From: an uncultured virus (IMG/VR IMGVR_UViG_3300027832_000007)
Lineage: Duplodnaviria; Heunggongvirae; Uroviricota; Caudoviricetes
Virus record (IMG/VR): IMGVR_UViG_3300027832_000007
Direction: 5' to 3' (one strand)
DNA length: 64,000 nt
Positions 1,034 to 16,916 of this stretch are shown in pieces. How positions within the stretch are numbered: position 1 is the first letter of the stretch; each line of letters starts with the position of its first letter. The position numbers and the translations under genes were made by a program. The notes under the pieces are model-generated. The model saw nothing but the letters and a program-made list of their open reading frames with translations. It did no database searches and was not told where the DNA came from.

Positions 1034-3607
1034 TTATCCTCTTGGCTTTCCTTGATTCATATTTTTTATTGTTTCTTCTTGAACTAACCTGGTAATTTTT
1101 CTTCTAGCAGACTCATCTAATTCAATTTTTTGAACACCACTTCCAGTATCTAACTTAATAGTACCGTTTATAGTTATGTTACCAAATTCAATCTTCATAG
1201 TTCCATTATTCGTAGACCCACCCTTACTTTTAGTATCTTTACTATAAGGAACACCTACGCTAGACTCACTCATATTACCATACCTACTTAAACTAGACGA
1301 TATGCTACCACTTGGTTTAAGTTCCCTACTCATATTTTTAGTATCTATATTAGGTGAAACAGCCACACCATCACCAGCATGTGTTATAGCCATATTACCA
1401 TATTTATCTGAAATAGTAAAAGGTCCATTACCTGGGCTAGCTATACCATCTTCAACCTTCTGAACACCTTTCTTATCAGTACCCACCCAATCACCAATAG
1501 CCTTACCAGCCATAGAACCCAACGCAGCACCTATCGCTGTTCCTACGCCAGGTATTGGAATAAAACTTCCCAATATACCACCCAATATACCACCAGCAGT
1601 TGAACCTATATCTCCAGCAATAGTATCATCATTACCAAGAGCTGAAGATATTTTACCACCAGCATAATCACCAAGCATACCAGCACCTAAAGTTGCGGCA
1701 CCAGTAGCCATTTTAGCAGCACCAAACGCTAACTTAGTCCCAGTTCGACCCACTTTAGGTAACATTTTCTTAGCAAAACTAGTCTTACCACCTTTACCAA
1801 AAGTTGCCTTATCCATCATTGAATCTCCACCAACACCTAATCCACCTGCACTTGCACCAGCATTAAAACCCTTAGATAATAAAATACCATTCTTAAACCA
1901 TTTAACACTATCCCACATTCCACCAAGTACACTAAAAATTGTTGGTGCTAATTTTGCTGTTAAATATGTTAAACCAGCAGTGATAGGGTTATCAATTATC
2001 CAACCACCTAAAGCTGTAACTAAAGTACCAATTTTTGATGCAAAATATTCAATTTTTTCACCAAACCCACCCTTAGCTGAAAATGTATCACCAAAATGTT
2101 GAAGTTTAGGTACTAATTTATCATTTATCATCTGAACAAGAGGTAATATAGATACTTTAATTTGATTAATTAAATTAGTAACTGTCTCATCAAATGTTTG
2201 AGCTTGAATAGCCATCTCTTTATTTGTTTCTGTCTGTTTAATCTGTGCGTTAATAGCATCACCATCTTGTTTAGATAATTGATTCAAAAATTTAGGTTCA
2301 CCGCCAATTAAAATTTTACCCTTACCATTTTTATCTAAGGTAGCTGTATTTGTTAAGAACTCTTCTTGTTCTGGTGTCATTTCAAATGACACTTGCGTTT
2401 TAAGTTTTGCAAATTTAGCTGCATTCTTACCAGCAACAACCAAATCATCATAAGCTAAACCAGTCTGTTCAGCAATTATCTTCAACCTATGCATCTCTTT
2501 AGCTTGTAAATCAAACTCTCCAGTCTTATTGTTAAATTGTGCTGAAGCAGAAGCGGCATTAGCTATCTCTTTAGTTAAACCCTCCATATCATTACGAGCT
2601 TGATACATTAATTTGAATGGGTCAGCCATGTTAGCCCATTGACCACCCATAACAGATAATTGAGCCGACATATCGATAGCACCTTCAACATCCCAAAGTT
2701 TATCTGAAAAACTAGAAGCAAATTCCATATCAACACCCAATTTAGCTACTGTACTAGCCATACTAGCTAAACCTTTAACACCATCTTTGAAATTATACTT
2801 GTTAAGCATTTTCATATTATTGGTAATATTCTTAACAACCTTAGAAGCATTTAAACCCATTCTATGAGCATCATTCATAGTATCATTAATAAAACTAGAT
2901 GTTCGTTCAGCAGATAACCCTTGATTCTCCATAGAAGCAGCTAGTCTAGCAGCACCTTCAGCACCTAAACCAGTTGCAGCTGCCATTTCACCCATAGCAA
3001 CTAAACCTTTCTCACCCAATAATACACTCCTACCTAATTCATCACTATAAACACCTTGCATTTGAGCTAATTCTTCAACACCAACACCAATCATATTGGT
3101 CTGTTTACCAGCACTAACAATAGAACTTCTAAACGAATCAGCTTGTTTACTAAAAATACCCATGGATAAAGCAGTAGACTTTATTGATTTCTCCATTTGG
3201 AATAATCCAGAACCTTTAATATCGTTAAAACCCTTTTTAAAAAATTCAACACCCTTAACCAAACCCTTAGCTGAAGAAGCGAAAGCTTTTGCACTAACAA
3301 TATTTAATTTATTAACTGTTTTTAAAGCATCACCATATAACTTAACTTGTTCAGTTAATTTTTTATTTTGATGGACTATTATATCTAACTTATCTTGTGC
3401 TAATTTTTTTTCATTAGCTGATTTTGAAGGGTTATTAATAATGGCATTAAGTTCTTTTTGAATAGCTAAATTACTATTTATAGTATCTTGTAATACTTTA
3501 TATTTTTTAACATTTTCAATATAAGATTCATAATTTGAGTTAACTTCTGCCTGTAACTGTGCTTGTTTTTCCAACAATCTAACAGCTGCTTCTAATTTTT
3601 TTGACAT
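1034..3607 (-). CDS. Tail tape measure protein
   Basis: 857 aa, Ala/Met/Gly-rich and helical, with coiled-coil N-terminus and Gly-rich hydrophobic C-terminal segment (GILGGILGSFIPIPGVGTAIGAALG). Lies downstream of tube and chaperone genes. Confidence 0.8.
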   Translation of the reverse strand: MSKKLEAAVRLLEKQAQLQAEVNSNYESYIENVKKYKVLQDTINSNLAIQKELNAIINNPSKSANEKKLAQDKLDIIVHQNKKLTEQVKLYGDALKTVNKLNIVSAKAFASSAKGLVKGVEFFKKGFNDIKGSGLFQMEKSIKSTALSMGIFSKQADSFRSSIVSAGKQTNMIGVGVEELAQMQGVYSDELGRSVLLGEKGLVAMGEMAAATGLGAEGAARLAASMENQGLSAERTSSFINDTMNDAHRMGLNASKVVKNITNNMKMLNKYNFKDGVKGLASMASTVAKLGVDMEFASSFSDKLWDVEGAIDMSAQLSVMGGQWANMADPFKLMYQARNDMEGLTKEIANAASASAQFNNKTGEFDLQAKEMHRLKIIAEQTGLAYDDLVVAGKNAAKFAKLKTQVSFEMTPEQEEFLTNTATLDKNGKGKILIGGEPKFLNQLSKQDGDAINAQIKQTETNKEMAIQAQTFDETVTNLINQIKVSILPLVQMINDKLVPKLQHFGDTFSAKGGFGEKIEYFASKIGTLVTALGGWIIDNPITAGLTYLTAKLAPTIFSVLGGMWDSVKWFKNGILLSKGFNAGASAGGLGVGGDSMMDKATFGKGGKTSFAKKMLPKVGRTGTKLAFGAAKMATGAATLGAGMLGDYAGGKISSALGNDDTIAGDIGSTAGGILGGILGSFIPIPGVGTAIGAALGSMAGKAIGDWVGTDKKGVQKVEDGIASPGNGPFTISDKYGNMAITHAGDGVAVSPNIDTKNMSRELKPSGSISSSLSRYGNMSESSVGVPYSKDTKSKGGSTNNGTMKIEFGNITINGTIKLDTGSGVQKIELDESARRKITRLVQEETIKNMNQGKPRG

Positions 3608-6793: not shown

Positions 6794-7150
6794 CTAATAG
6801 TCAGCTCCAGTTCCATCCTTAAATTTAGAATTTACAGAAAATCTTTGATTAAAAGCCTTTAATATTTCGCCCAAATTACGATTAGCGATAGCCTTATCTA
6901 AAACACCTAAACCTATATAAGGGTCAACTATATCAGCAATATTTTTAATTATAGCTTTTAACGCATCTTCATTCTTGTTCAAATCCTTTTCATTATTTTC
7001 TTTTATTGACATATGATTGTCACCAAAACCAATTTGTGTTTCATCAACTCCATCTAACGATTCATTGACAATACCTTTTGATTCTAAGTATCTATTCTCA
7101 ATTATTAAGTTAATTTTCCTAAGGTTTTTTAATTTATCTGATTTTCTCAT
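6794..7150 (-). CDS. Small late protein, leader-paralog A (118 aa)
   Basis: Start moved to 7150 (MRKSDKLKNLRKINLIIENRYLESKG) because the ATATTTAT motif at 7164-7171 lies inside the longer track ORF and the N-terminus aligns with ORF 7220-7846. Confidence 0.7.
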   Translation of the reverse strand: MRKSDKLKNLRKINLIIENRYLESKGIVNESLDGVDETQIGFGDNHMSIKENNEKDLNKNEDALKAIIKNIADIVDPYIGLGVLDKAIANRNLGEILKAFNQRFSVNSKFKDGTGADY

Positions 7151-7219
7151 ATTAATTTTTATTATAAATATTTTAAACATAAAAAAACACTCGTTAAAGT
7201 AGTTTTTTTATCTTTTATT

Positions 7220-7846
7220 TTAATTTTCATTTTTACCAGAAGGATTATGTTCAATGAATTCACTCATTTTTTTAAATACTTCCTCTCCGTTGTCTACTCC
7301 CGTTCTAACATCTATCATATCATGATAATCATTAATAAACATCTTATTTTTTTGTGGGCCGTCTTTATCTAAATAATAAATAACTTGACCACCAACAGCC
7401 TTCCTATTCTCACCCTCACGCTTATCCAATCCAAAAAAATACTTAATAGAATTTTTAGATTCGTCTATATTTTTTAATTCACCAACATTATACGCACCAT
7501 CCTTAAGAAGAAATGTTATAAATTCTAAATCAGTAAATTTATATTCTTCATTTAAATGTTCAAAATTTTTATAATCTTCATATAATCTTACAAGTTCGGA
7601 ATATTTTTCAATCATTTTTGCATGTCTATCTGGGTAATCATTTTTCAACCTAGCTAACAAGTCTCCAACACCACTTTTATTATACGGTGTACCGTTTTTT
7701 ATTTTTTCAAATGCGTCATTTATCAATCCAATCAAAACATCTTCAGTTGTTTGGTTTTCAGTAACAAAACCTTTAGATTTAAGGTACCTTTGTTCCGTTA
7801 ATAAATTAACCCTAGCTAAATTCTTTTGTTTATCAAATCTTCTCAT
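7220..7846 (-). CDS. Late protein, leader-paralog B (208 aa)
   Basis: N-terminus MRRFDKQKNLARVNLLTEQRYLKSKG. The 27 bp around the start is identical to paralog A. Confidence 0.75.
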   Translation of the reverse strand: MRRFDKQKNLARVNLLTEQRYLKSKGFVTENQTTEDVLIGLINDAFEKIKNGTPYNKSGVGDLLARLKNDYPDRHAKMIEKYSELVRLYEDYKNFEHLNEEYKFTDLEFITFLLKDGAYNVGELKNIDESKNSIKYFFGLDKREGENRKAVGGQVIYYLDKDGPQKNKMFINDYHDMIDVRTGVDNGEEVFKKMSEFIEHNPSGKNEN

Positions 7847-8197: not shown

Positions 8198-8686
8198 TTA
8201 AAATAATAATATAGCTCTATCGAATCTCATAGTAGCTGTTATTTCAGCAATACCATCATCATCCATAGATAAGTCACCGAATCCAACATTTGTTAACATT
8301 GTACCATCTAATAACCATTTTTCAATAACAACTCCAGTAGGGTCAAGCATTTCTAATTCAACTGGACGTTTATAACCAGCAGCATAACCTTGACGACCTG
8401 TAATTGATTCTGAATGTAAACGAACCCACTCCATTATAGCTTGTGCAGCAGAAGGACCAATAGGGTCTCTAAAGGTTACATCGATAGTTTCCCAAGTAAA
8501 CCTACCTATTACCCATGTAGAAGTGTTTAAGAAAGGAATCTCAACTTCATTTTGTGTTATTGAAGGTCTAGATGCGGAAGACAACCACCATTGTTGGATA
8601 CCTAAATCTGCTGGAAAAGTAATTAGCCAACGATTCTTCTTCTTAGGTTCGTATGGTAAGGGCATTTTCATTAATAAATCTGACAT
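8198..8686 (-). CDS. Tail tube protein (T4 gp19-like)
   Basis: 162 aa with YEPKKKNRW, RPS, GRFTWETIDVTFRDPI, MEWVRL and LDPTGVVIEKWLL motifs. Lies downstream of the sheath gene. Confidence 0.9.
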   Translation of the reverse strand: MSDLLMKMPLPYEPKKKNRWLITFPADLGIQQWWLSSASRPSITQNEVEIPFLNTSTWVIGRFTWETIDVTFRDPIGPSAAQAIMEWVRLHSESITGRQGYAAGYKRPVELEMLDPTGVVIEKWLLDGTMLTNVGFGDLSMDDDGIAEITATMRFDRAILLF

Positions 8687-8784: not shown

Positions 8785-10260
8785 ATGAAAATAACTAAAA
8801 ATAAATATAATACTGAATCATTTATTAAAATTTGTGAAGAAATTCATAATAAAGAATATAATTACGATAAGTTAATATATTTAGATATTAATACAAAAAT
8901 AATTATAACATGTGTTAAACATGGTGATTTTAAACAATCACCTAATAATCATATACATGGCCAAGGTTGTCCTATTTGTGGTAAATCAAAAAGTAAAAAA
9001 AATTCAACAACTGATGAATTTATAAATAAAGCTAAAATTATTCACGGTAATAAATATGATTATTCCAAAGTTAAGTATTCCGACAGTAAAACAAAAGTTA
9101 AAATAATATGTTTAGAACATGGTGAGTTTGAGCAAATACCCAGCGGTCACCTTAGAGGTAAGGGTTGTGTAAAATGTGGTAAAAAATCAGCTAAAGAAAA
9201 ACTAAGTAATAGTGTTGGATTTTTAGTTGAAAAAGCTGGTGAGGTTCATAATAATAAATATGATTATTCATCAGTAAATTACGTTAATGCACACACCAAA
9301 ATAATAATAAAATGTCCTACACATGGTGAATTTACACAATTACCTTACGACCATTTAAGTGGTCATGGGTGTAATAAATGTGCATCATCTATATCTAGTT
9401 ATGAGGTTGAGATTAATGAATTCATAAACTCACTAGACGTTTCAACTATTACTTCATCAATGTCTATAATAAAACCACAACAATTAGATATTTTCATACC
9501 TTTACATAAAATAGCAATTGAATTCAATGGATTATATTGGCATTCTGAGAATTTTATTGATAAAAATTATCATTTAAATAAAACTAAAGCATGTGAAGAT
9601 ATAGGAATTCAATTGATACATATATTTGAAGATGAATGGGTAAATAAAAAAGATGTTGTTAAATCTAGATTGAGAAACTTACTAGGTGTGACCGAATATA
9701 AAATATATGGTCGTAAGTGTTCGATAAAGGAGATAACTAATAATATCTCTAGAATTTTTTTAGATAAAAACCATTTACAAGGATTCACCAATTCAACAGT
9801 TAAATTAGGTCTATTCCACGAGGAAGAGTTAGTTAGTGTTATGTTATTTAATAAACCTAGAATCGGTATAGGACAAGACTATGATGGGTATGAATTAACT
9901 AGATTTGCTAGTAAATTAAACACTAGCGTTATTGGTGGTGCCGATAAATTACTTAAATATTTCGTTAAAAATACTAAACCAAAAAAAATAGTTAGTTATG
10001 CTGATAAAAGATGGTCAAATGGTGATTTATATGAAAAATTAGGTTTTAAATTAACACATGAGAATAAACCTAATTATTGGTATGTTTTAGGTAAAACTAG
10101 AAAACATAGATTCAATTATCGAAAAAATGCATTAAAAGAAAAAGGTATTGATATAACAAATAAAACTGAACATGAAATAATGTTAAATCTTGGCATATAC
10201 CGTATATATGATTGTGGAACCCTATCATATACTTTAGACTTAAGATTTACTTATCCTTAA
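8785..10260 (+). CDS. Homing-endonuclease-like protein: 3x DUF723-like Zn repeats + Vsr/DUF559-like nuclease + Mom-like GNAT domain
   Basis: Repeats of YDYS.V.Y...K..I.C..HG.F.Q.P..H..G.GC..C, then LDIFIP...AIEFNGLYWH...IHIFEDEW, then NHLQG...YELTRF...IVSYADKRWSNGDLYEKLGF. Antisense to the surrounding operon. Confidence 0.8.
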   Translation: MKITKNKYNTESFIKICEEIHNKEYNYDKLIYLDINTKIIITCVKHGDFKQSPNNHIHGQGCPICGKSKSKKNSTTDEFINKAKIIHGNKYDYSKVKYSDSKTKVKIICLEHGEFEQIPSGHLRGKGCVKCGKKSAKEKLSNSVGFLVEKAGEVHNNKYDYSSVNYVNAHTKIIIKCPTHGEFTQLPYDHLSGHGCNKCASSISSYEVEINEFINSLDVSTITSSMSIIKPQQLDIFIPLHKIAIEFNGLYWHSENFIDKNYHLNKTKACEDIGIQLIHIFEDEWVNKKDVVKSRLRNLLGVTEYKIYGRKCSIKEITNNISRIFLDKNHLQGFTNSTVKLGLFHEEELVSVMLFNKPRIGIGQDYDGYELTRFASKLNTSVIGGADKLLKYFVKNTKPKKIVSYADKRWSNGDLYEKLGFKLTHENKPNYWYVLGKTRKHRFNYRKNALKEKGIDITNKTEHEIMLNLGIYRIYDCGTLSYTLDLRFTYP

Positions 10261-10615
10261 GTATTTTATTAGCTATATCTAACATATCTAAACTATAACC
10301 TAAATTATTTTCTTTTGAATATCTATTGAAATTATCAGCTATAATATCAGTTTTATATAATAATTTATTAGACGCATCATCCATACCTTTATTAGTTAAA
10401 GACTCAATAAACTCTTTTATTTTTTCAGAATCCTCCAACGCATTCTTGATTGCACCCATAGTAGATTTACTCTTAACTGCATTGTTTGCTATATTCTCAT
10501 TTTGACCAGTCAACTTTATATCCATTACTTTTGCGAGACCTAATAAAATATCATCTGAGTTTTCAAATAATAATATAGACTTATATTGATTTTCCGTTAT
10601 AATTAACTTTATCAT
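10247..10615 (-). CDS. Small late protein with KLIITE-type leader
   Basis: 122 aa, begins MIKLIITENQY. ATATTTAT motif at 10628-10635. Confidence 0.65.
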   Translation of the reverse strand: MIKLIITENQYKSILLFENSDDILLGLAKVMDIKLTGQNENIANNAVKSKSTMGAIKNALEDSEKIKEFIESLTNKGMDDASNKLLYKTDIIADNFNRYSKENNLGYSLDMLDIANKILKDK

Positions 10616-10645: not shown

Positions 10646-10675
10646 AAAAAAAAAACCTCGAAAATTCGAAGGTTT
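10646..10675 (-). terminator. Intrinsic terminator
   Basis: aaacc-tcgaa/ttcga-aggttt hairpin with A10 run, downstream of ORF 10698-12251. Confidence 0.65.
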
Positions 10676-10692: not shown

Positions 10693-10733
10693 TTTTTTTA
10701 GACATTATCAAATGAAGCACCAGTATTCATTAT
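10693..10733. repeat. 41-bp direct repeat, copy 1 (duplicate of the sheath 3' end)
   Basis: tttttttagacattatcaaatgaagcaccagtattcattat is identical to 12371-12411. Confidence 0.95.
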
Positions 10734-12251
10734 TATAAGCTCGAATCTCATAGAACCACAATCCCAAATTCTATCATAACCTTTTAACTCCATTATCTCC
10801 TTTTCACTTAATCTAACATCATAACCATCTTTAACCAAAACATCTTTTCTATAATTAAATCTATGATATCTATTATTAAACTCACCCACCTTAAGGTACC
10901 AATAATTTGGTAAGGTATTACCAATGTACTTAAAACCATTTTTATTATACACAGTATTCATTGGGTCTATACCAGACCATCTTATGTCAGCATACGTTGT
11001 TATTTTATATGGTTTATAATCAGTGATGAAATTCTTTAATAACTTAGAAAACCCACCAATAACGGTAGTATTAATTTTATTAACGAACCTAATTAATTCA
11101 AAAACATTCTCAGTCGTCTTATTATGACCTAAAACTTTACGTTCTTTACCAAAAGTCATTAAACTAACTAATTCCCCATCATAATATAAACCTAATCTTA
11201 TTTTATCAACGCAATTACCTTGAATATGATTATCATCTAAAAATTTAGAGCTATCAACCTTATTAACTAATCTAATAATACATTTCCTACCATATATCTT
11301 ATTAGTATTTAATTTCAATAAATTACCTAATCTAGATAAAACTATATCCTTTTTATATAGTATTTCATCTTCAAATATATGAATAAGTTTAATACCCTTA
11401 GAATTAGCTAAATTAGTCTTGTTTAAATGATATTTCTTATCTTTCTGACCATATTTTTCACTATGATAATAATTACCATTAATCTCTAAACCTAAACCAT
11501 TATCACTTAATAATAAATCAATTTCTTTACCATCTAATACAGTTCTATCATTATCTATATGTTTGATATTATTTTCATTAATGAAATCCCTAATACCTTC
11601 TTCTAATTTTGAATTTTTAACTAATGGGTTACATTTACGACATATAGGTATCTTTCCAGAACCTAAAACTGTACTTGTAAATATATTATCACACTTTAAA
11701 CACTTGAAATTATACGGTAATGATGTAGAACCATTCTTATTAACAGAATACTCATCCAATAATTCTAAAAAATTAAGATTAAGTTTAGGTAATAGATTAT
11801 TAATCTGTTTAATTCTTAATGTCTCTTTAAGATTATCAACAAATTCAGTTTTAAACATAGGGTTAGTAACACCATGTACATCTAATAATAAATTTTTAAC
11901 ATTACCCTTAAACTCATCAGTCTTGAATATTGAGTCAACACCATAATTGTCAATCAATTTATTTTTACTAGCAAGTATTCTAGTGTGTTTATTTTCATCA
12001 AGTGAGTTCCACTTTTTCCGACAAATATCAGAACATAACAGTTTATTATGTTTTTTCCTTTCCGTAAATTCAGTCTCACAAATTAAACACTTTCTAACTT
12101 CCCTCAATTCTGAATCAAATTTCCTACCTATTGTTTTATTTTTCCTAGCATGTTCAAAATAACACGTCCTATTACAAAATTTCTTATCTCGGTGCTTAAA
12201 CTCAACCTCAAAATCACCACCACAATTAGTACATATCAATTCTATCTTCAT
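10698..12251 (-). CDS. Homing-endonuclease-like protein: Zn fingers + Vsr/DUF559-like nuclease + Mom-like GNAT, ending in sheath-derived IMNTGASFDNV
   Basis: CxxC...FCxxxC twice, EIDLLL...LEINGNYYH...IHIFEDE, NHIQG...FELIRF...TTYADIRWSG...YNKNGF, and RIWDCG. Confidence 0.8.
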   Translation of the reverse strand: MKIELICTNCGGDFEVEFKHRDKKFCNRTCYFEHARKNKTIGRKFDSELREVRKCLICETEFTERKKHNKLLCSDICRKKWNSLDENKHTRILASKNKLIDNYGVDSIFKTDEFKGNVKNLLLDVHGVTNPMFKTEFVDNLKETLRIKQINNLLPKLNLNFLELLDEYSVNKNGSTSLPYNFKCLKCDNIFTSTVLGSGKIPICRKCNPLVKNSKLEEGIRDFINENNIKHIDNDRTVLDGKEIDLLLSDNGLGLEINGNYYHSEKYGQKDKKYHLNKTNLANSKGIKLIHIFEDEILYKKDIVLSRLGNLLKLNTNKIYGRKCIIRLVNKVDSSKFLDDNHIQGNCVDKIRLGLYYDGELVSLMTFGKERKVLGHNKTTENVFELIRFVNKINTTVIGGFSKLLKNFITDYKPYKITTYADIRWSGIDPMNTVYNKNGFKYIGNTLPNYWYLKVGEFNNRYHRFNYRKDVLVKDGYDVRLSEKEIMELKGYDRIWDCGSMRFELIIMNTGASFDNV

Positions 12252-12289
12252 AAAGTATTATCTTTTTTTAAGTAACTAACGCTACACAC

Positions 12290-12308
12290 ATAAATATATA
12301 CAAATGTA
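12290..12308 (-). promoter_or_regulatory. Adjacent TACATTTG (host-type) and ATATTTAT (late-type) boxes upstream of the nuclease gene
   Basis: caaatgta at 12301-12308 and ataaatat at 12290-12297. Confidence 0.5.
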
Positions 12309-12312
12309 CTAA

Positions 12313-12353
12313 AAAAGAAAAAGGATGCAAATAAATTACATCCTTTTTTCTTT
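12313..12353 (-). terminator. Intrinsic terminator of the sheath gene
   Basis: aaaaaggatg-caaataaatta-catccttttt hairpin just downstream of the sheath stop. Confidence 0.75.
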
Positions 12354-12370
12354 AAAAATTAATTACTTAT

Positions 12371-12411
12371 TTTTTTTAGACATTATCAAATGAAGCACCA
12401 GTATTCATTAT
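12371..12411. repeat. 41-bp direct repeat, copy 2 (sheath 3' end)
   Basis: Identical to 10693-10733. Confidence 0.95.
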
Positions 12412-15192
12412 CACAAATTCTAATTGAATAAATTCTAATGCTCTTGTTGGTTTCAAGAAGATTTGACCAGTTAATTGGTTTCTATCTAAATCTTCTGGGT
12501 CGCTTGAAAGAACCACACGGAAATCTGTTAAACCTCTTTGACTTCTAATGTTATCTAATATTGGGTTTACAAGTGCTAAAAATTGATTTCTCACTGCCGA
12601 ATCATTTTGTTCAAATAATAATCTGATTGAAACTGCAGAAATTAATTTTCTTGCTTGTAATAGTAAACGTCTAACGTTAATTCTATTAAGAGCAGTACCT
12701 TTAACTTGAAGTGTTTTATTACCCCAAATCTTAACACCATCCGTTGTGAATGTAGCGATTGGATTGATTCTAGCTTCATATAAAGTATCTCTCTCACCTA
12801 AAGTAAGTACCTTTCTTGCTTGAATCGCATCAACATCACCTCTCTGTATACCAGCTACTGCGAACCAAGGGAATGAAATATTATCTGTTAATGCTATATT
12901 TCTAACTACGTCACGTGTAGGTGGCATGTATATATATACATTATTTTCAGTATCATTTACTTGAATCCATGGCCAGTAAGTACAAGAGTAATTACTATCA
13001 TATAATCCATCTAAAGCATCAGAGATATCTTCAGCTGTTCTTAAATCACCACCACCATCAGTATCTGGGGTAGTCATTATATATAATGAATCTGCTCTAT
13101 CTTGTTCAATCATTTCGATAGCAGCTTCAATTAAGTTAGAGTTATCGACATTATCAATACCTGGTGTTGCAAATATATTAATATTTGTAGCTTCTGGATT
13201 TCTAAATGTCCAAATAGCTTCTAAATAAGCGTAGTAATCAGAATTAATACCTATATCACCGTTTGTTAAAGTTTTATTTGAGAACGCACCACTTAATAAA
13301 CCATCAGCACCACTAGCACCATTTATTAAAAATGAATCTAAATTACTTCTTCTGCTTCTATAAATATCCCATCCATCAAATCCACCATAAGGTGCGAATG
13401 TAAATTTACGTGCATATACTTTTTCATATGGTCCACCAACAACACCAGCTTCAGTTCTGAAAGTATCATTACCAACGTCAAATGAATAATTTTGGGAACC
13501 AGATACACCATCAATAGTTGCACCAAAAGCATCGATATCCATGTGGAATCCACTTGTCATTCCAGTCCAGAAATCAGACGCACCATCAGAAGGTTTACCT
13601 TTATAATCAAAGAAATCAGAATCAATTCCTACACTGTCAGACAAACCTAAATATACTTTACGTTTATTTTCAAAAGTACTATATTCTGTTTTGTATGTTA
13701 ATTTAGGGTCAACAACATTAGTGTTATTATTTGCTTGATAATCTCTTACTGGAACTCCAAGGAACCCAGATGGGAAAGCATCAGAAATATTAGAAGTATC
13801 GTCTAATTCAATTAATACGAATGAAGATTTTGATGGATATTCACCATCTAAAGTACCAATACGTCTAGAGATAAAATTATTTGATGTTGGGTTTAAATTA
13901 CATTTAGAGAATGACTCCAACACTACTGGTTGTACATCTGTATCTGAGTAAGACCTAACTACTACATCAAATTCTTTAGTATCTAATTTAATATTTCTGA
14001 TTGATATTTTGAATTGCTCATTTGCAGTATTACCATCAGATATTGTCCAAAATCTAAATAATTTCAACACTTTAGTACCACGTAATTCAGAAATAACATA
14101 AGGTGTTACCGCTGGTTGATATTGTGTTAAATAATCATCGTATTTTTCACCATAATTAACAGTTGCTTGATTAATACCTCTAACTTTGTTATCAGAGACA
14201 AATGATTCAAACATTTTACGATAGAATTCCTCAACATATAATGTAGTGCTACCATCTTGCGCTCCTCTACCTAACGCTCTTGGTAAATAATTTTGTTTTG
14301 TTTTATCTAAAGATAATTGGTAATTAAAATTACCCTGAGTTCTTGAAGCACCAGTTAATCCAAAGTTACCATTAACATCACTTATAGAACCAGTTAAAGA
14401 TGGGTCAAATACAACACCAGTTGTACCAGTTACTTCAAATAAAGGTAATTGTGATGCCGTATCTACAGAAGCTCTAGAACGTAATAAAGCAACTACTTTA
14501 TTTTCTACATCTGAATAACCAGAACCAGAACAATTAATTGACGTACCAGAAGTTGTACCAGTAATAAAGTTACCAGTTACATCATTACCAGTAGCCGTTA
14601 CATATAAATTAGCTGATAAACCACTAAATACATCACCAGACTTACGGAATGTTAAAGATATAGCTAAAGTAGCGCCAGTTGGTAAAGTTGATAATATAGC
14701 TAAAGAGCCAGTTAAAGCTCCGTCATTAATTAATGCTTGCATAAGCGCATCACTACTAACAAGAGTAACGTTTGTGTTTGTAGATGTTGCAGTATATGAA
14801 ATTAATTGATTAATATTAGTTGTTGATGTAACACCAGTTGTTGAAGAATCCAAAGCAGCGTCCAAAGTAAGTGCCCACCCTTTACCAGCATGGAACCCAG
14901 AAAAACCTAATACCCTTGTTACGAATAATTGGTTAGATTGTGATAAATATGAATTAGCAATATATGGTAACTCATATTTTGGCGCTCCATTATCCTTTAT
15001 TTTAGTGGCATTTTGACCACCAAAGAAAGACTTAAATTCACCGTAGTTACCTACGAATATTGGCTGGAACGCTGGTCCCATAGTTGTTTCACCAACTAAC
15101 CCCAATGTTGTAACGCCAATTTGACGTGTTATGAACGATAAGTCTCTTTCTGAAGTAAACACTCCTGGACTTACAAATACTCTATTCGGCAT
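12376..15192 (-). CDS. Tail sheath protein (T4 gp18-like), 938 aa
   Basis: Start moved to MPNRVFVSPGVFTSERD (ATG 15192, late motif 15244-15251). C-terminal YWPW, PWFAVAG, RINPI, IWGNKT, RINVRRL and IFLKPTRALEFIQLEF motifs. Confidence 0.95.
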   Translation of the reverse strand: MPNRVFVSPGVFTSERDLSFITRQIGVTTLGLVGETTMGPAFQPIFVGNYGEFKSFFGGQNATKIKDNGAPKYELPYIANSYLSQSNQLFVTRVLGFSGFHAGKGWALTLDAALDSSTTGVTSTTNINQLISYTATSTNTNVTLVSSDALMQALINDGALTGSLAILSTLPTGATLAISLTFRKSGDVFSGLSANLYVTATGNDVTGNFITGTTSGTSINCSGSGYSDVENKVVALLRSRASVDTASQLPLFEVTGTTGVVFDPSLTGSISDVNGNFGLTGASRTQGNFNYQLSLDKTKQNYLPRALGRGAQDGSTTLYVEEFYRKMFESFVSDNKVRGINQATVNYGEKYDDYLTQYQPAVTPYVISELRGTKVLKLFRFWTISDGNTANEQFKISIRNIKLDTKEFDVVVRSYSDTDVQPVVLESFSKCNLNPTSNNFISRRIGTLDGEYPSKSSFVLIELDDTSNISDAFPSGFLGVPVRDYQANNNTNVVDPKLTYKTEYSTFENKRKVYLGLSDSVGIDSDFFDYKGKPSDGASDFWTGMTSGFHMDIDAFGATIDGVSGSQNYSFDVGNDTFRTEAGVVGGPYEKVYARKFTFAPYGGFDGWDIYRSRRSNLDSFLINGASGADGLLSGAFSNKTLTNGDIGINSDYYAYLEAIWTFRNPEATNINIFATPGIDNVDNSNLIEAAIEMIEQDRADSLYIMTTPDTDGGGDLRTAEDISDALDGLYDSNYSCTYWPWIQVNDTENNVYIYMPPTRDVVRNIALTDNISFPWFAVAGIQRGDVDAIQARKVLTLGERDTLYEARINPIATFTTDGVKIWGNKTLQVKGTALNRINVRRLLLQARKLISAVSIRLLFEQNDSAVRNQFLALVNPILDNIRSQRGLTDFRVVLSSDPEDLDRNQLTGQIFLKPTRALEFIQLEFVIMNTGASFDNV

Positions 15193-15297
15193 AGTTTTCT
15201 CTTTTTTTTGTTTTATGTTATTTACTTTATAGTTTTCTTTATTATAAATATTAACAATAATCCAAAAGTAATGTCTTAAAACAAAATATATCTTTTT

Positions 15298-15330
15298 AAG
15301 TATGAATTTAATCATACTTTTATCATACTT
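15298..15330. promoter_or_regulatory. Three TCATACTT boxes (one inverted, two direct), candidate operator
   Basis: aagtatga at 15298-15305; tcatactt at 15312-15319 and 15323-15330. Confidence 0.5.
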
Positions 15331-15998: not shown

Positions 15999-16916
15999 TT
16001 AACTGTTTGGATTGGATAATATTGTAATACTTCCTAAATCCTCAACTTTTATTTTTAGAGATTGTGGCAAATCTGAAACTGAAAACACCCCAGCTTGTTG
16101 AGAAGAGGCACGAATAAACGCAGAAGCAAAATCCGAACACGCAACAAAATAACGAGTATGTGTATTTCCAGCCGTTAAGCCAGTTAAAATAAATTCTGCA
16201 GAATATCCGTTACTCGCCCCATCATCATCACCATTCACTCTGAACCAACCGTTAGTTGGTGTTGTTGTTGCTGTTGATAAGTTATGCAAACCAATTCTTA
16301 AATTAGTAGCTGAATTCGTCAGTATAGCGTCGAAATCCATTTTAATAGATACTTTACCACTCTCTGGTGCGATAAATACTACCTTAGCAAATCTATTTGT
16401 TCCATCGCTATTTAAGTTAATCGACGTTGCTGTTAAAGACGTTACAACTGTATGTGTTACCAAAGTTGTCGCTCTTAATTCAGTCATTGCAATTAACGCA
16501 GAACTACCAGCACCATTACTAGAACTAAATCCAGACACACTAAATGTACCACCAGTATTATTGGTAAATGTCGCAGTAGTTGTACCACTTGAATACGTAC
16601 CACCAGTCAATATAATATCTATAGGTAAATTTAAATATGTTGTAGCTGATATTGTTGTTGCTGTTAACCCATTAGTAAAATTAGTTGGACCATTTACAGT
16701 TCCGCCAGTAAACGAACCACCACCACCACCACTACCAAACCCAGACACACTAAATGTACCACCAGTATTATTCGTGAAAATTGCTGTCCCAGCATTATAT
16801 GTACCACCAGTTATAGTCACATCGATAGGTAAACCTAAATAAGTTGTTGCTGAAACACTCATAATAGCTAGGTTACCTTGAATCTTTTCTGCGTTTATAT
16901 TTTTATTTTCTGACAT
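15999..16916 (-). CDS. Thr/Gly-rich virion fibre-like protein with TGGT modules
   Basis: 305 aa, two TGGTY...FTNNTGGTFSVSGF modules. Confidence 0.7.
   Translation of the reverse strand: MSENKNINAEKIQGNLAIMSVSATTYLGLPIDVTITGGTYNAGTAIFTNNTGGTFSVSGFGSGGGGGSFTGGTVNGPTNFTNGLTATTISATTYLNLPIDIILTGGTYSSGTTTATFTNNTGGTFSVSGFSSSNGAGSSALIAMTELRATTLVTHTVVTSLTATSINLNSDGTNRFAKVVFIAPESGKVSIKMDFDAILTNSATNLRIGLHNLSTATTTPTNGWFRVNGDDDGASNGYSAEFILTGLTAGNTHTRYFVACSDFASAFIRASSQQAGVFSVSDLPQSLKIKVEDLGSITILSNPNS

Follow-up and report, generated by a model that had tools for sequence, protein, structure and literature searches.

A predicted Hef-like homing endonuclease gene between two copies of the tail sheath gene 3' end in an uncultured jumbo myovirus

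Layout of the sheath-tube interval

The window, i.e. the whole 64,000-nt stretch of DNA that was analysed (IMG/VR record IMGVR_UViG_3300027832_000007), belongs to an uncultured AT-rich freshwater jumbo myovirus. Its tail sheath and tail tube genes and the interval between them are laid out as follows (positions are those of the window).

8198..8686, minus strand: tail tube gene (PHROG 4542 'tail tube protein', E 2.2e-26)
8785..10260, plus strand: Hef2, second Hef-like gene, 491 aa, antisense between orf122 and the tube gene (PHROG 559, E 1.5e-136; PHROG 3339, E 9.6e-118)
10247..10615, minus strand: orf122, small hypervariable gene of the sheath-tube interval; no family match
10656..10671, minus strand: predicted terminator T2, hairpin CCTTCGAATTTTCGAGG, identical to one behind the sheath stop codon in the empty site L006
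10693..10733, minus strand: repeat copy c2, comprising Hef1 aa 507-517, the stop codon and 5 nt
10698..12251, minus strand: Hef1, Hef-like homing endonuclease gene, 517 aa (PHROG 3339 'homing endonuclease', E 4.4e-105 over aa 6-505)
10734..11315, minus strand: Mom/GNAT-like C-terminal domain of Hef1, about aa 313-506, last strand MRFELII
11355..11603, minus strand: predicted nuclease core of Hef1, aa 217-299, Vsr/PD-(D/E)XK-like (profile of 62 homologues matched to PDB 3r3p)
12318..12348, minus strand: predicted terminator T1, behind the sheath gene, a 13-pair hairpin followed by a T run (centroid fold)
12371..12411, minus strand: repeat copy c1, comprising the sheath gene's last 11 codons, TAA and 5 nt
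12376..15192, minus strand: tail sheath gene (PHROG 23 'tail sheath', E 2.5e-59; weak matches to Pfam Phage_sheath_1 and Phage_sheath_1C)

The sequence self-comparison revealed that c1 and c2 are identical at 41/41 positions and lie 1678 nt apart, with a weaker similarity that extends the repeat by 13 nt (54 nt at 91%). With up to 3 mismatches allowed, the repeat was found in these 2 places only, and in none of 100 dinucleotide-preserving shuffles. Both genes that end in the repeat lie on the minus strand, and in each the repeat provides the final 11 codons and the stop codon, plus the 5 nucleotides behind it: the sheath ORF (12376-15315) ends in ..LEFVIMNTGASFDNV and the 517-aa ORF (10698-12251) in ..RFELIIMNTGASFDNV. 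The exact duplication of the sheath 3' end, its in-frame use by both genes, with the nuclease ORF drawing its end and stop codon from the second copy, and a separate terminator behind each copy (hairpins at 12348-12318 and 10671-10656), all asserted in the preliminary description, were reproduced. Terminator-like sites in the region number 4, against 0.4 expected. The promoter boxes that the same description placed between the copies did not stand out from the background (22 sigma-70-like matches versus 18.6 +/- 4.0 in shuffles). Its remark that the element carries no integrase agrees with the finding that the nuclease ORF is the one coding ORF of substantial size between the repeats; the other ORFs (41-127 aa) all lie inside it or antisense to it.

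The likely start of the sheath gene is MPNRVFVSPGVF.. at 15192, with the ORF staying open to an ATG at 15315; the sheath N-terminus in relatives reads MA.KVFVSPGVYTSE. The window sheath is 28-34% identical to the sheaths of T4-type and Microcystis phages. At the far side of the interval, the tail tube gene is 83-99% identical in relatives, and orf122, located behind the sheath gene in most relatives with identities of 29-78%, matched neither Pfam nor PHROG families. The last 14 nt of Hef2 overlap the end of orf122; Hef2 shares 44% identity with Hef1 over 303 aa, and no flanking repeat was found around it in the window.

Domain composition of Hef1

Hef1 belongs, by sequence, to the Hef-like free-standing homing endonucleases and is predicted to comprise zinc ribbons, a Vsr/I-Bth0305I-like core and a Mom/GNAT-like end domain. 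The tblastn search matched genes annotated as Hef-like in 419 phage records, with Tenacibaculum, Bacillus, Campylobacter, Vibrio and Proteus phages among them, and the PHROG scan identified families of the Hef type as well as families labelled 'HNH endonuclease'. The Pfam scan gave matches below the curated cut-off only, with none to GIY-YIG or LAGLIDADG, and the NCBIfam scan of Hef1 gave no match. A scan with the single Hef1 protein matched only the window's own two records, and an alignment had to be used. The profile built from 62 homologues matched PDB 3r3p ('Mobile intron protein') over aa 217-299 with a weak score (E 7.3e-4). This structure, which we take to be that of I-Bth0305I, is the only solved relative of the Hef1 core by sequence profile; the nuclease core is related, but I-Bth0305I is intron-encoded and has a different overall architecture. 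Residues E243, D245, E256, H263, E294, D295 and E296 are invariant in the 62 homologues and may have catalytic roles. The paralogue Hef2 shows a weak match to Pfam REase_MTES_1575.

For the end domain, Foldseek identified the Mom protein of phage Mu (8bv8) as the best match (E 2.4e-6), followed by GNAT acetyltransferases, and Pfam Mom was matched with E 1.2e-4, below the curated cut-off. In the AlphaFold model of Hef1 (mean pLDDT 89.6) a strand occupies residues 500-506, and pLDDT falls below 50 at residues 510-517, which make up all but the first three residues of the 11-residue tail (507-517).

Occupied and empty alleles

One further assembly, L002, is identical to the window over 11,229 nt, another from a different sample, L003, is 99.9% identical (9 mismatches, 1 gap), and L290, a 106-kb contig among the matches listed in the metagenome scan, encodes the identical 517-aa protein; the element is also present in contigs of four further runs. 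Since the insert recurs in these three assemblies, it is not a chimera. An assembly artefact, i.e. a chimeric join or a collapsed repeat that made the second copy, might be suspected from the behaviour of the short-read de Bruijn contigs (the run data are k=31 contigs), which break at the 41-nt repeat and one of which loops through it. This explanation is vanishingly improbable, given the structure shared by the window, L002, L003 and L290, the diverged versions with mismatched copies in many other assemblies, and the depth of the repeat unitig in run X4 (10.5 versus 5.4-6.6 for the flanks), as expected for two copies per genome. As the words of the linear genome suffice to build the looping contig of run X5, which 'goes back 1678' with 41 shared letters, this contig is evidence for neither a circle nor a tandem copy. 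A product of precise excision would be equally invisible in k=31 contigs. The nearest genome record, G001, matches the sheath region over 27 nt only.

Empty sites, which the preliminary description proposed to seek in the sheath-tube interval of related phages, were found in L006 and L007, where one copy of the repeat region is followed by T2, orf122 and the tube gene, with neither Hef gene present. L006 is the nearest sheath relative that lacks the insert (about 90% nucleotide identity in the sheath, as for L007), and recombination between c1 and c2 would, as suggested earlier, regenerate an allele like this real one. T1 is missing from L006, and T1-like hairpins occur 3' of the sheath stop codon in other loci bearing Hef1 (L212, L213, L214, L217 and L218); T1 is part of the cassette and T2 the ancestral terminator of the sheath gene. 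These alleles support the idea of a 1678-bp mobile unit at the end of a sheath gene that is left intact.

Recurrence of the second copy among relatives

The comparison covered 132 distinct sheath-end loci, 65 with and 67 without a Hef gene behind the sheath. In 13 of the former a second copy of the sheath 3' end was detected, and in 0 of the latter (Fisher p 5e-5); the remaining 52/65 have a Hef gene but no recognisable second copy. A second copy was scored in 5/78 sheath loci (scores 61-85 versus 29 or less for the rest), and in 14/77 Hef1 loci it stands exactly at the Hef 3' end. A distance of about 120 nt separates the sheath stop codon from the Hef1 orthologues that follow it, in loci whose sheaths are 50-100% identical to that of the window; the identities of Hef and sheath are correlated (Spearman 0.68, 300 pairs), and the patchy presence of Hef corresponds to at least 13 changes on the sheath tree. 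Hef1 is a free-standing gene whose site is fixed, and relatives have this site either occupied or empty (empty in L006/L007 and L108). The matches listed in the metagenome scan for Hef were mostly distant Hef genes.

The edges of the repeat relative to the stop codon range between lineages from -50 to -10 on the left and from 0 to about +100 on the right, and its length from 18 to about 130 nt, so that several events or later trimming must be assumed. In three cultured phages with Hef-like genes adjoining sheath, tube or capsid genes (PP35, Mutine and PTm5), flank repeats did not exceed those in shuffles (3/3), unlike in the window; together with the 52/65 loci this indicates that the duplication is not required for the mobility of Hef genes. 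'Repeat Unit 5' of Campylobacter phage NCTC12673, considered as a target duplication, was rejected, since it represents the 5' end that tandem Hef genes have in common. The preliminary description had allowed for an assembly chimera, or for a one-off duplication with neither an empty-site allele nor similar cases; neither was found, and relatives show similar cases.

States of the second copy and the shared peptide

The second copy occurs in various states. It is out of frame in L214-216 and L291, stands behind the nuclease's own stop codon in L217 and L230-232, lies in non-coding DNA beside a reversed Hef gene in L029, L058 and L093, and is decayed in L212/L238, L093 and L230, with replacements from GASFT to GESLT in L212/L238. 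Of the 120 best homologues of Hef1, 12 end in a sheath-like tail; 107 stop 2-6 residues past WDCGxMKFEL without a sheath-derived tail, and one (P0020) reads the copy out of frame.

The preliminary description speculated that the shared peptide docks the nuclease onto the sheath lattice. According to this explanation the borrowed C-terminus would place the nuclease in the lattice (virion packaging or localisation) and selection would keep its frame and identity, as might be argued from the strong conservation of the sheath C-terminal peptide across relatives, from the 12 tailed homologues, and from the fused copy being in frame in 5/6 lineages (binomial p 0.018, with lineages that are non-independent, two of them sharing one joint). 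The out-of-frame, post-stop and non-coding copies speak against it, the last of these being nonetheless 29-38 nt identical to c1, as do the accumulating replacements, the 107 untailed homologues together with P0020, and the low pLDDT of residues 510-517; a functional tail is thus very unlikely, and the docking idea found no support. The varied states (out of frame, behind a stop codon, reversed, decaying) show instead that the sheath-like C-terminus of the nuclease is a by-product of the position of the right-hand joint.

Conservation of the copy at the level of nucleic acid would follow if the last ~40 nt of the sheath gene held a cis-acting signal (an RNA end, a processing site or a promoter element) needed both behind the sheath and before T2/orf122, with only duplicating insertions surviving. 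The second copy is nearly unchanged even where it is non-coding (L029, L058, L217), and it always retains its native link to T2. On the other hand, 52/65 Hef loci have no recognisable second copy, the copy decays in L093, L212 and L230, and the centroid fold of repeat plus terminator contains the terminator hairpin only; such a signal is, in our estimate, a highly improbable cause of the duplication.

Co-conversion and the origin of the copies

The best sister pair is that of L029, with the cassette, and L108, with an empty site. Within the final 85 nt of the sheath gene the two differ at 15 positions, against 1 in the 219 nt before (Fisher p 2e-8). The interior of c2 in L029 matches c1 and not L108, and from the stop codon onward the DNA matches L108; both copies differ from the resident sequence of L108 at 4/30 positions. 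Over its final 90 nt, the L029 sheath gene most resembles that of L093 (95.6% identity), although upstream the two share only 84.8%; L093 likewise combines a reversed Hef gene with a second copy. This comparison of sisters argues that the last ~85 nt of the sheath and both copies came in with the cassette by homologous recombination, and a foreign 3' end with both copies is what homing with co-conversion predicts. In the window the corresponding signal (87.8% identity to the L006 sheath in the last 90 nt versus 95.3% upstream) is weak because L006 is 5-12% diverged throughout. The earlier statement that the element entered the sheath end while regenerating it thus stands in part: the gene is intact and the unit mobile, but in L029, compared with L108, both copies were imported and not made on the spot.

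A true target-site duplication at each insertion, in which a staggered cut of roughly 30-45 nt is filled in as in transposition, would explain why the copies are identical within a genome and carry its own codon choices (the window; L029 versus L058), and why the second copy accompanies a nuclease gene in either orientation. We nevertheless regard it as improbable. Length and edges of the repeat vary widely, no inverted repeat is listed at the element ends, most Hef insertions are without a repeat, and the L029 copies, like the 85-nt flank, are foreign to the sister sequence, so that they arrived with the cassette and not from the target. Homing with co-conversion does not by itself account for everything: c1 equals c2 in the window (41/41), L029 (38/38) and L058 (29/29), and 5 differences separate L029 from L058, so that simple co-transfer fails to explain the identity, and either gene conversion or element-level selection has to be invoked.

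Proposed mechanism

In the reading that we favour, with a probability of about 0.8, a free-standing Hef-like homing-endonuclease cassette of 1678 bp lies behind the sheath gene, founded by one-sided repair and spread by homing, with the shared peptide as a by-product. The cassette would consist of T1, a short leader and the Hef1 ORF, placed directly behind the sheath gene. Judging from the layout, the sheath gene may have been cut near its 3' end and repaired on the left through homology within the conserved sheath gene, and on the right by an illegitimate joint where the nuclease ORF ends, since orf122 on the downstream side varies too much for pairing; this would have left the nuclease followed by a second copy of the final sheath codons. 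The block c1-T1-Hef-c2 would then move between related phages by homologous recombination, as seen in L029, accompanied by co-conversion of the sheath gene's final ~85-90 nt. The second copy may act as a conserved right-hand homology arm, decaying where the element is long resident.

That the second copy is such a portable arm, kept by selection on a selfish element and not a mere scar, is a tentative suggestion that we hold to be rather doubtful. If true, conserved coding DNA would flank a free-standing nuclease gene on both sides, making homing into any related phage possible despite the hypervariable orf122 and giving, without splicing, the advantage that introns and inteins draw from their position. 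The spreading cassettes would be those in which the copy is intact (window, L029, L058, L217), the copy would decay where the element is fixed and empty sites are absent, and cutting of the repeat by the nuclease could drive homogenisation of c1 and c2 within a genome.

Under the favoured reading, the locus represents a phage example, sampled many times, of a free-standing homing endonuclease gene at the very end of an essential structural gene with neither intron nor intein, and duplication of the gene's last codons would be its means of settling without breaking the gene. It would also account for mosaic 3' ends of sheath genes and for odd chimeric C-termini of nucleases, either of which could mislead annotation. 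The occupied, empty and decaying alleles form a test set for the life cycle of homing endonucleases and for the homology-arm idea.

Comparison with known systems

Hef1 resembles Hef and the Hef-like free-standing enzymes in family (by profile and tblastn), in the location of its gene between conserved genes and in its patchy presence. Hef of the T-even phage U5 reportedly cuts nrdB (PMC2988022), and F-LimVIII of Dickeya phage LIMEstone1 is described as a Hef-like gene adjoining the tail tube gene in the sheath-tube interval (PMC3296691); a Hef-like gene occupies the same interval in the Ackermannviridae phages PP35 and Mutine. The passages that describe Hef of U5 and F-LimVIII contain, unlike the case of the window, neither a flanking duplication nor a borrowed C-terminus (PMC2988022, PMC3296691), and the review of T4-related mobile DNA holds no word beginning with 'duplicat' (PMC2988022).

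One-sided homing in T4, as summarised there, uses homology on one side and a microhomology joint on the other, and one-sided double-strand-break repair is proposed as the route of mobile elements to new sites (PMC2988022). This fits the conserved sheath on the left and the hypervariable orf122 on the right, although the T4 case is, unlike the window, an experimental intron system (PMC2988022). Islands borne by integrases at the 3' ends of tRNA and other genes (attL/attR) are likewise flanked by direct repeats of the target 3' end and leave the gene intact. The cassette differs from them in the absence of an integrase, in a repeat length that varies by lineage, and in movement with co-conversion of flanking DNA, which site-specific recombination does not give. 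Two candidate classes were rejected: an integrase-mediated island, as no integrase gene lies between the repeats, and a transposon or insertion sequence with target-site duplication, as the Pfam and PHROG scans matched no transposase family in the element, no terminal inverted repeat is among the repeats listed for the region, and the duplication length is inconstant (18 to about 130 nt).

One of the two closest parallels, next to one-sided repair in T4, is found in fungal mitochondria, where endonuclease ORFs with a C-terminal duplication of the host gene are described in atp6 of Allomyces macrogynus, atp6 and cox2 of Phlebia radiata, and atp6 and cob of Endoconidiophora resinifera (PMC4019555, PMC6279837). 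As far as these accounts go, there too the endonuclease gene is located where an essential gene ends, with one copy of the end keeping the gene whole and the displaced copy behind the endonuclease; in the window, likewise, copies of the host gene's 3' end flank the endonuclease ORF and the host gene is undamaged. The fungal enzymes are described as GIY-YIG or LAGLIDADG, organellar and often fused to the host ORF or intronic (PMC4019555, PMC6279837), whereas that of the window is a predicted Vsr-like Hef of a phage. Hef1 differs from them further in that a terminator precedes it, in having a start codon of its own, and in that the nuclease, not the host gene, reads the displaced copy. The element works like the fungal mitochondrial type but is not a member of it, and it ties phage Hef-like elements to a layout described, within the literature searched, for fungal mitochondria. 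The same arrangement was found at a different target in L298: there the duplicated 45 nt on either side of a Hef gene span a stop codon, a spacer and a start codon, and the gene uses the duplicated start and stop.

Duplication of the sheath 3' end

The duplication of the sheath end that accompanies the Hef cassette (the 1678-bp unit of terminator T1, leader and Hef1 ORF) is a real and recurrent feature. In the window, the 41 nt at 10693–10733 are identical to those at 12371–12411, and with up to 3 mismatches allowed the repeat occurs at these 2 places and in none of 100 shuffles. Both the sheath ORF, which ends in ..LEFVIMNTGASFDNV, and the 517-aa ORF at 10698–12251, which ends in ..RFELIIMNTGASFDNV, use the repeat as their last 11 codons, TAA and the 5 nt beyond, which bears out the exact in-frame duplication claimed in the preliminary description. 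Its claim of a separate terminator behind each copy (c1 at the end of the sheath gene, c2 at the end of the nuclease gene) also stands, with 4 terminator-like sites in the region versus 0.4 expected, while the promoter boxes placed between the copies do not stand out (22 matches vs 18.6 in shuffles). All genes around the repeat are on the minus strand, with the exception of Hef2.

Features of the sheath–Hef region
12376–15315, minus strand: tail sheath gene, likely start 15192 (PHROG 23, E 2.5e-59)
12348–12318, minus strand: terminator-like hairpin T1, behind c1
10671–10656, minus strand: terminator-like hairpin T2, behind c2
8785–10260, plus strand: Hef2, second Hef-like gene, 44% identical to Hef1 over 303 aa, antisense, between orf122 and the tube gene

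The sheath protein exhibits 28–34% identity to T4-type and Microcystis phage sheaths.

The Hef-like proteins

The 517-aa ORF (Hef1) is, judged from its sequence, a putative Hef-like homing endonuclease; it matches PHROG 3339 'homing endonuclease' (E 4.4e-105), and tblastn matched 419 phage records, many of which carry a Hef-like annotation. The structure model built from 62 homologues (mean pLDDT 89.6) comprises three parts: an N-terminus with zinc-ribbon-type elements, a nuclease core (aa 217–299) whose profile matches the solved 'Mobile intron protein' (3r3p, E 7.3e-4), and a C-terminal domain (aa ~313–506, window 10734–11315) with a predicted Mom/GNAT-like fold, for which phage Mu Mom is the best structural match (8bv8, E 2.4e-6), with GNAT acetyltransferases ranking next. 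MRFELII (aa 500–506) forms the final strand of this fold in the model, and the borrowed tail corresponds to aa 507–517, with pLDDT <50 at its last 8 residues (510–517). Nuclease ORFs of this family typically end ~8 residues past WDCG, and the second-copy joints are located at that point. Hef2 ends in ..TLDL-RFTYP*, ~5 residues beyond the usual family end, with a stop codon provided by the antisense orf122, a hypervariable small gene of the sheath–tube interval; Hef2 (plus strand) converges with orf122 (minus strand), and their 3' ends share 14 nt (10247–10260). Since Hef1 extends beyond the family end as well, both Hef genes of the window read into the flanking DNA, and no further Hef-like genes were found in the window, whose G+C content is 29.6%.

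The empty site and other assemblies

The possibility that the structure is an assembly chimera is countered by its repeated recovery: L002 matches the window exactly over 11,229 nt, L003, from a different sample, shows the same structure at 99.9% identity (9 mismatches and 1 gap), L290 (a 106-kb metagenome contig) encodes the same Hef1 protein at the same position, and four more runs, belonging to four studies, yielded contigs that contain the element. An empty site was sought in the sheath–tube interval of relatives and found in L006/L007 (sheath ~90% identical at the nucleotide level, tube 99% at the protein level), where one copy of the repeat region is followed by T2, orf122 and the tube gene, and both Hef genes are absent. 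Compared with L006, the ancestral sheath gene of the window ends in c1 and the ancestral terminator follows c2, with T1 and the nuclease gene between the copies. T1-like hairpins follow the sheath stop also in other Hef1-bearing loci, which indicates that T1 belongs to the cassette. A single contig from a lake metagenome (run X5, k=31) leads from the 3' part of Hef through the repeat into T1, i.e. goes back 1678 with 41 letters shared; over 10693–12370 it fits an excised circle or a tandem copy, and equally a low-depth graph loop.

Recurrence in relatives

Most of the loci fetched through the sheath (the best 80 of 380 relatives) read sheath–orf122–tube. In 5 of the 78 testable ones the sheath 3' end recurs, the second copy scoring 61–85 versus at most 29 elsewhere: the window type (L002, L003 and the window's own stretch, added by the script as a locus), L029 and L058. 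L029 and L058 carry a reversed Hef2-like nuclease gene between the copies, the second of which is non-coding; one more case of the L029 type, on a 362-kb contig, came from a pattern scan. Whether homologous nucleases end in the C-terminus of a neighboring gene was examined in the 120 best Hef1 homologues: 12 possess a sheath-like tail, 107 end 2–6 residues past the conserved WDCGxMKFEL, and in P0020 the copy is out of frame. Among Hef1-type loci, retrieved with an alignment of the tail-bearing proteins, the Hef1 orthologues lie ~120 nt behind the stop codon of sheaths 50–100% identical to that of the window, and 14 of 77 loci exhibit a second sheath-end copy exactly at the Hef 3' end.

Second copy relative to the nuclease reading frame
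In frame: window type; L212/L238; L287/L288; L255
Out of frame: L214–216
Behind the nuclease's own stop codon: L217; L230–232; L274

L223 has a shorter in-frame remnant (SFENI, 18 nt), whose score is within the shuffle range. For 132 distinct sheath-end loci pooled together, the second copy accompanies 11/47 forward Hef genes, 2/18 reversed ones and 0/67 sites with no Hef (Fisher p 5e-5 for second copy versus Hef presence, in a sample biased by the many loci fetched through Hef and by some near-duplicate rows).

The same layout exists at a different target in L298 (4150–5880), where a 525-aa Hef-like gene separates two unrelated small genes and has on either side a copy of a ~45-nt segment with a stop codon, a 28-nt spacer and an ATG. 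The duplicated ATG serves as the start codon of the nuclease, whose C-terminus (..VASF*) is encoded in the repeated end of the upstream gene (..LASF*).

L091, counted as 'empty', contains at ~3170–3260 (reverse strand) a truncated Hef remnant (antisense ..SYADRRW..) beside the orf122 promoter region, which exemplifies decay through deletion. Such remnants may be present in a few of the rows scored as 'empty'. L010 exhibits at 11765–12100 the orphan last 44 codons of a tube gene, 86% identical to the window's tube, with a Hef C-terminus fragment 22 nt later and a perfect 47-nt direct repeat nearby (11726–11772/12934–12980); this arrangement resembles the decayed remains of a Hef gene that had inserted after the tube gene.

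The shared peptide

It had been speculated that the shared C-terminal peptide docks the nuclease onto the sheath lattice. An in-frame copy does occur in 5 of the 6 lineages with a fused copy, but two of these share one joint and the numbers are too small to weigh. Against docking, the copy is retained in loci that offer no possibility of translating it as a tail (L217, L029, L058), is out of frame in L214–216 and carries replacements in the tail of L212/L238, and residues 510–517 of Hef1 are modeled with low confidence. Thus, the frame and position of the copies, the replacements and the model do not support this idea.

Movement and proposed origin of the duplication

The presence of Hef on the sheath tree is patchy and requires at least 13 changes; two empty loci, L006 and L108, are the sisters of the window and of L029, respectively. 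The identity values of Hef and sheath are correlated, with a Spearman coefficient of 0.68 (300 pairs). Over the final 85 nt of the sheath gene, L029 and L108 differ at 15 positions, compared with only 1 from -304 to -86 relative to the stop (Fisher p 2e-8); this one is among the 7 sparse mismatches found between -391 and -217. The two loci match again from the stop codon onward. The inside of c2 in L029 equals c1, and 4/30 positions differ from L108. For the final 90 nt of its sheath gene, L029 has its nearest match in L093 (95.6%, versus only 84.8% upstream), where the Hef gene is likewise reversed and a second copy is likewise present. This pattern indicates that the sheath end, the cassette and both repeat copies moved together, which we interpret as probable homing with co-conversion, a process described for T4-type elements (PMC2988022). 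The window exhibits a weaker trend of this kind: its identity to L006 is 87.8% over the final 90 nt of the sheath and 95.3% upstream.

The left flank of the cassette (sheath) is conserved, and the right one (orf122) shows only 29–78% identity among relatives. The duplication could have arisen by one-sided repair through sheath homology with an illegitimate right-hand joint, which would leave the resident sheath 3' end behind the incoming cassette; such repair is experimentally known in T4, according to the same review (PMC2988022). Duplication by a fixed staggered cut is argued against by the repeat edges, which vary among lineages.

In many cases c1 and c2 of one genome resemble each other more closely than either resembles its counterpart in another genome: they agree at 38/38 positions in L029 and 29/29 in L058, while 5 synonymous differences separate these two loci, whose sheath-plus-Hef regions are only 72% identical. 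The tendency is seen also in L287, L288 and L300, but not in L302, and the second copy is decaying in L093 (43/49), L212 and L230. Sporadic gene conversion would fit the within-genome likeness, as would element-level selection for a usable homology arm.

Comparison with known systems

The Hef-like family and its sheath–tube position are already known; F-LimVIII of LIMEstone1 is listed there (PMC3296691). As in the window, a Hef-like gene lies antisense between sheath and tube in the Dickeya phage PP35 (L368, 2398–4188) and the Salmonella phage Mutine (L369, 2656–4431), which belong to Ackermannviridae, are unrelated to the window's jumbo phage group and, unlike the window, lack flank repeats (0/3 in the cultured phages examined). 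Fungal mitochondrial endonuclease ORFs with C-terminal duplications have the same layout as the window (PMC4019555 and PMC6279837). No description of the sheath-end layout was found in the accessible parts of the phage literature (including PMC10448857 and PMC3706429; subscription papers may differ), and the available text of the T4 mobile-DNA review (PMC2988022) contains no word beginning with 'duplicat'.

Other repeats in the window

Two paralogous small genes (6794–7180 and 7220–7846), both starting with M..DK.KNL..NL..E.RYL.SKG, share a perfect 28-nt repeat (7144–7171/7840–7867) that spans their start and the DNA upstream of it; further copies of this gene family lie behind the tube gene in relatives (L010, 10438–11672; a 72-nt repeat in L064/L066). 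Between 16537 and 21166, several 33–42-nt repeats (92–98% identity) connect genes that lie downstream of the sheath operon and encode a repeated ..FTNNTGGTFSVSGF.. motif, e.g. in the ORF at 15999–16916; these genes probably encode paralogous fibre-like proteins.
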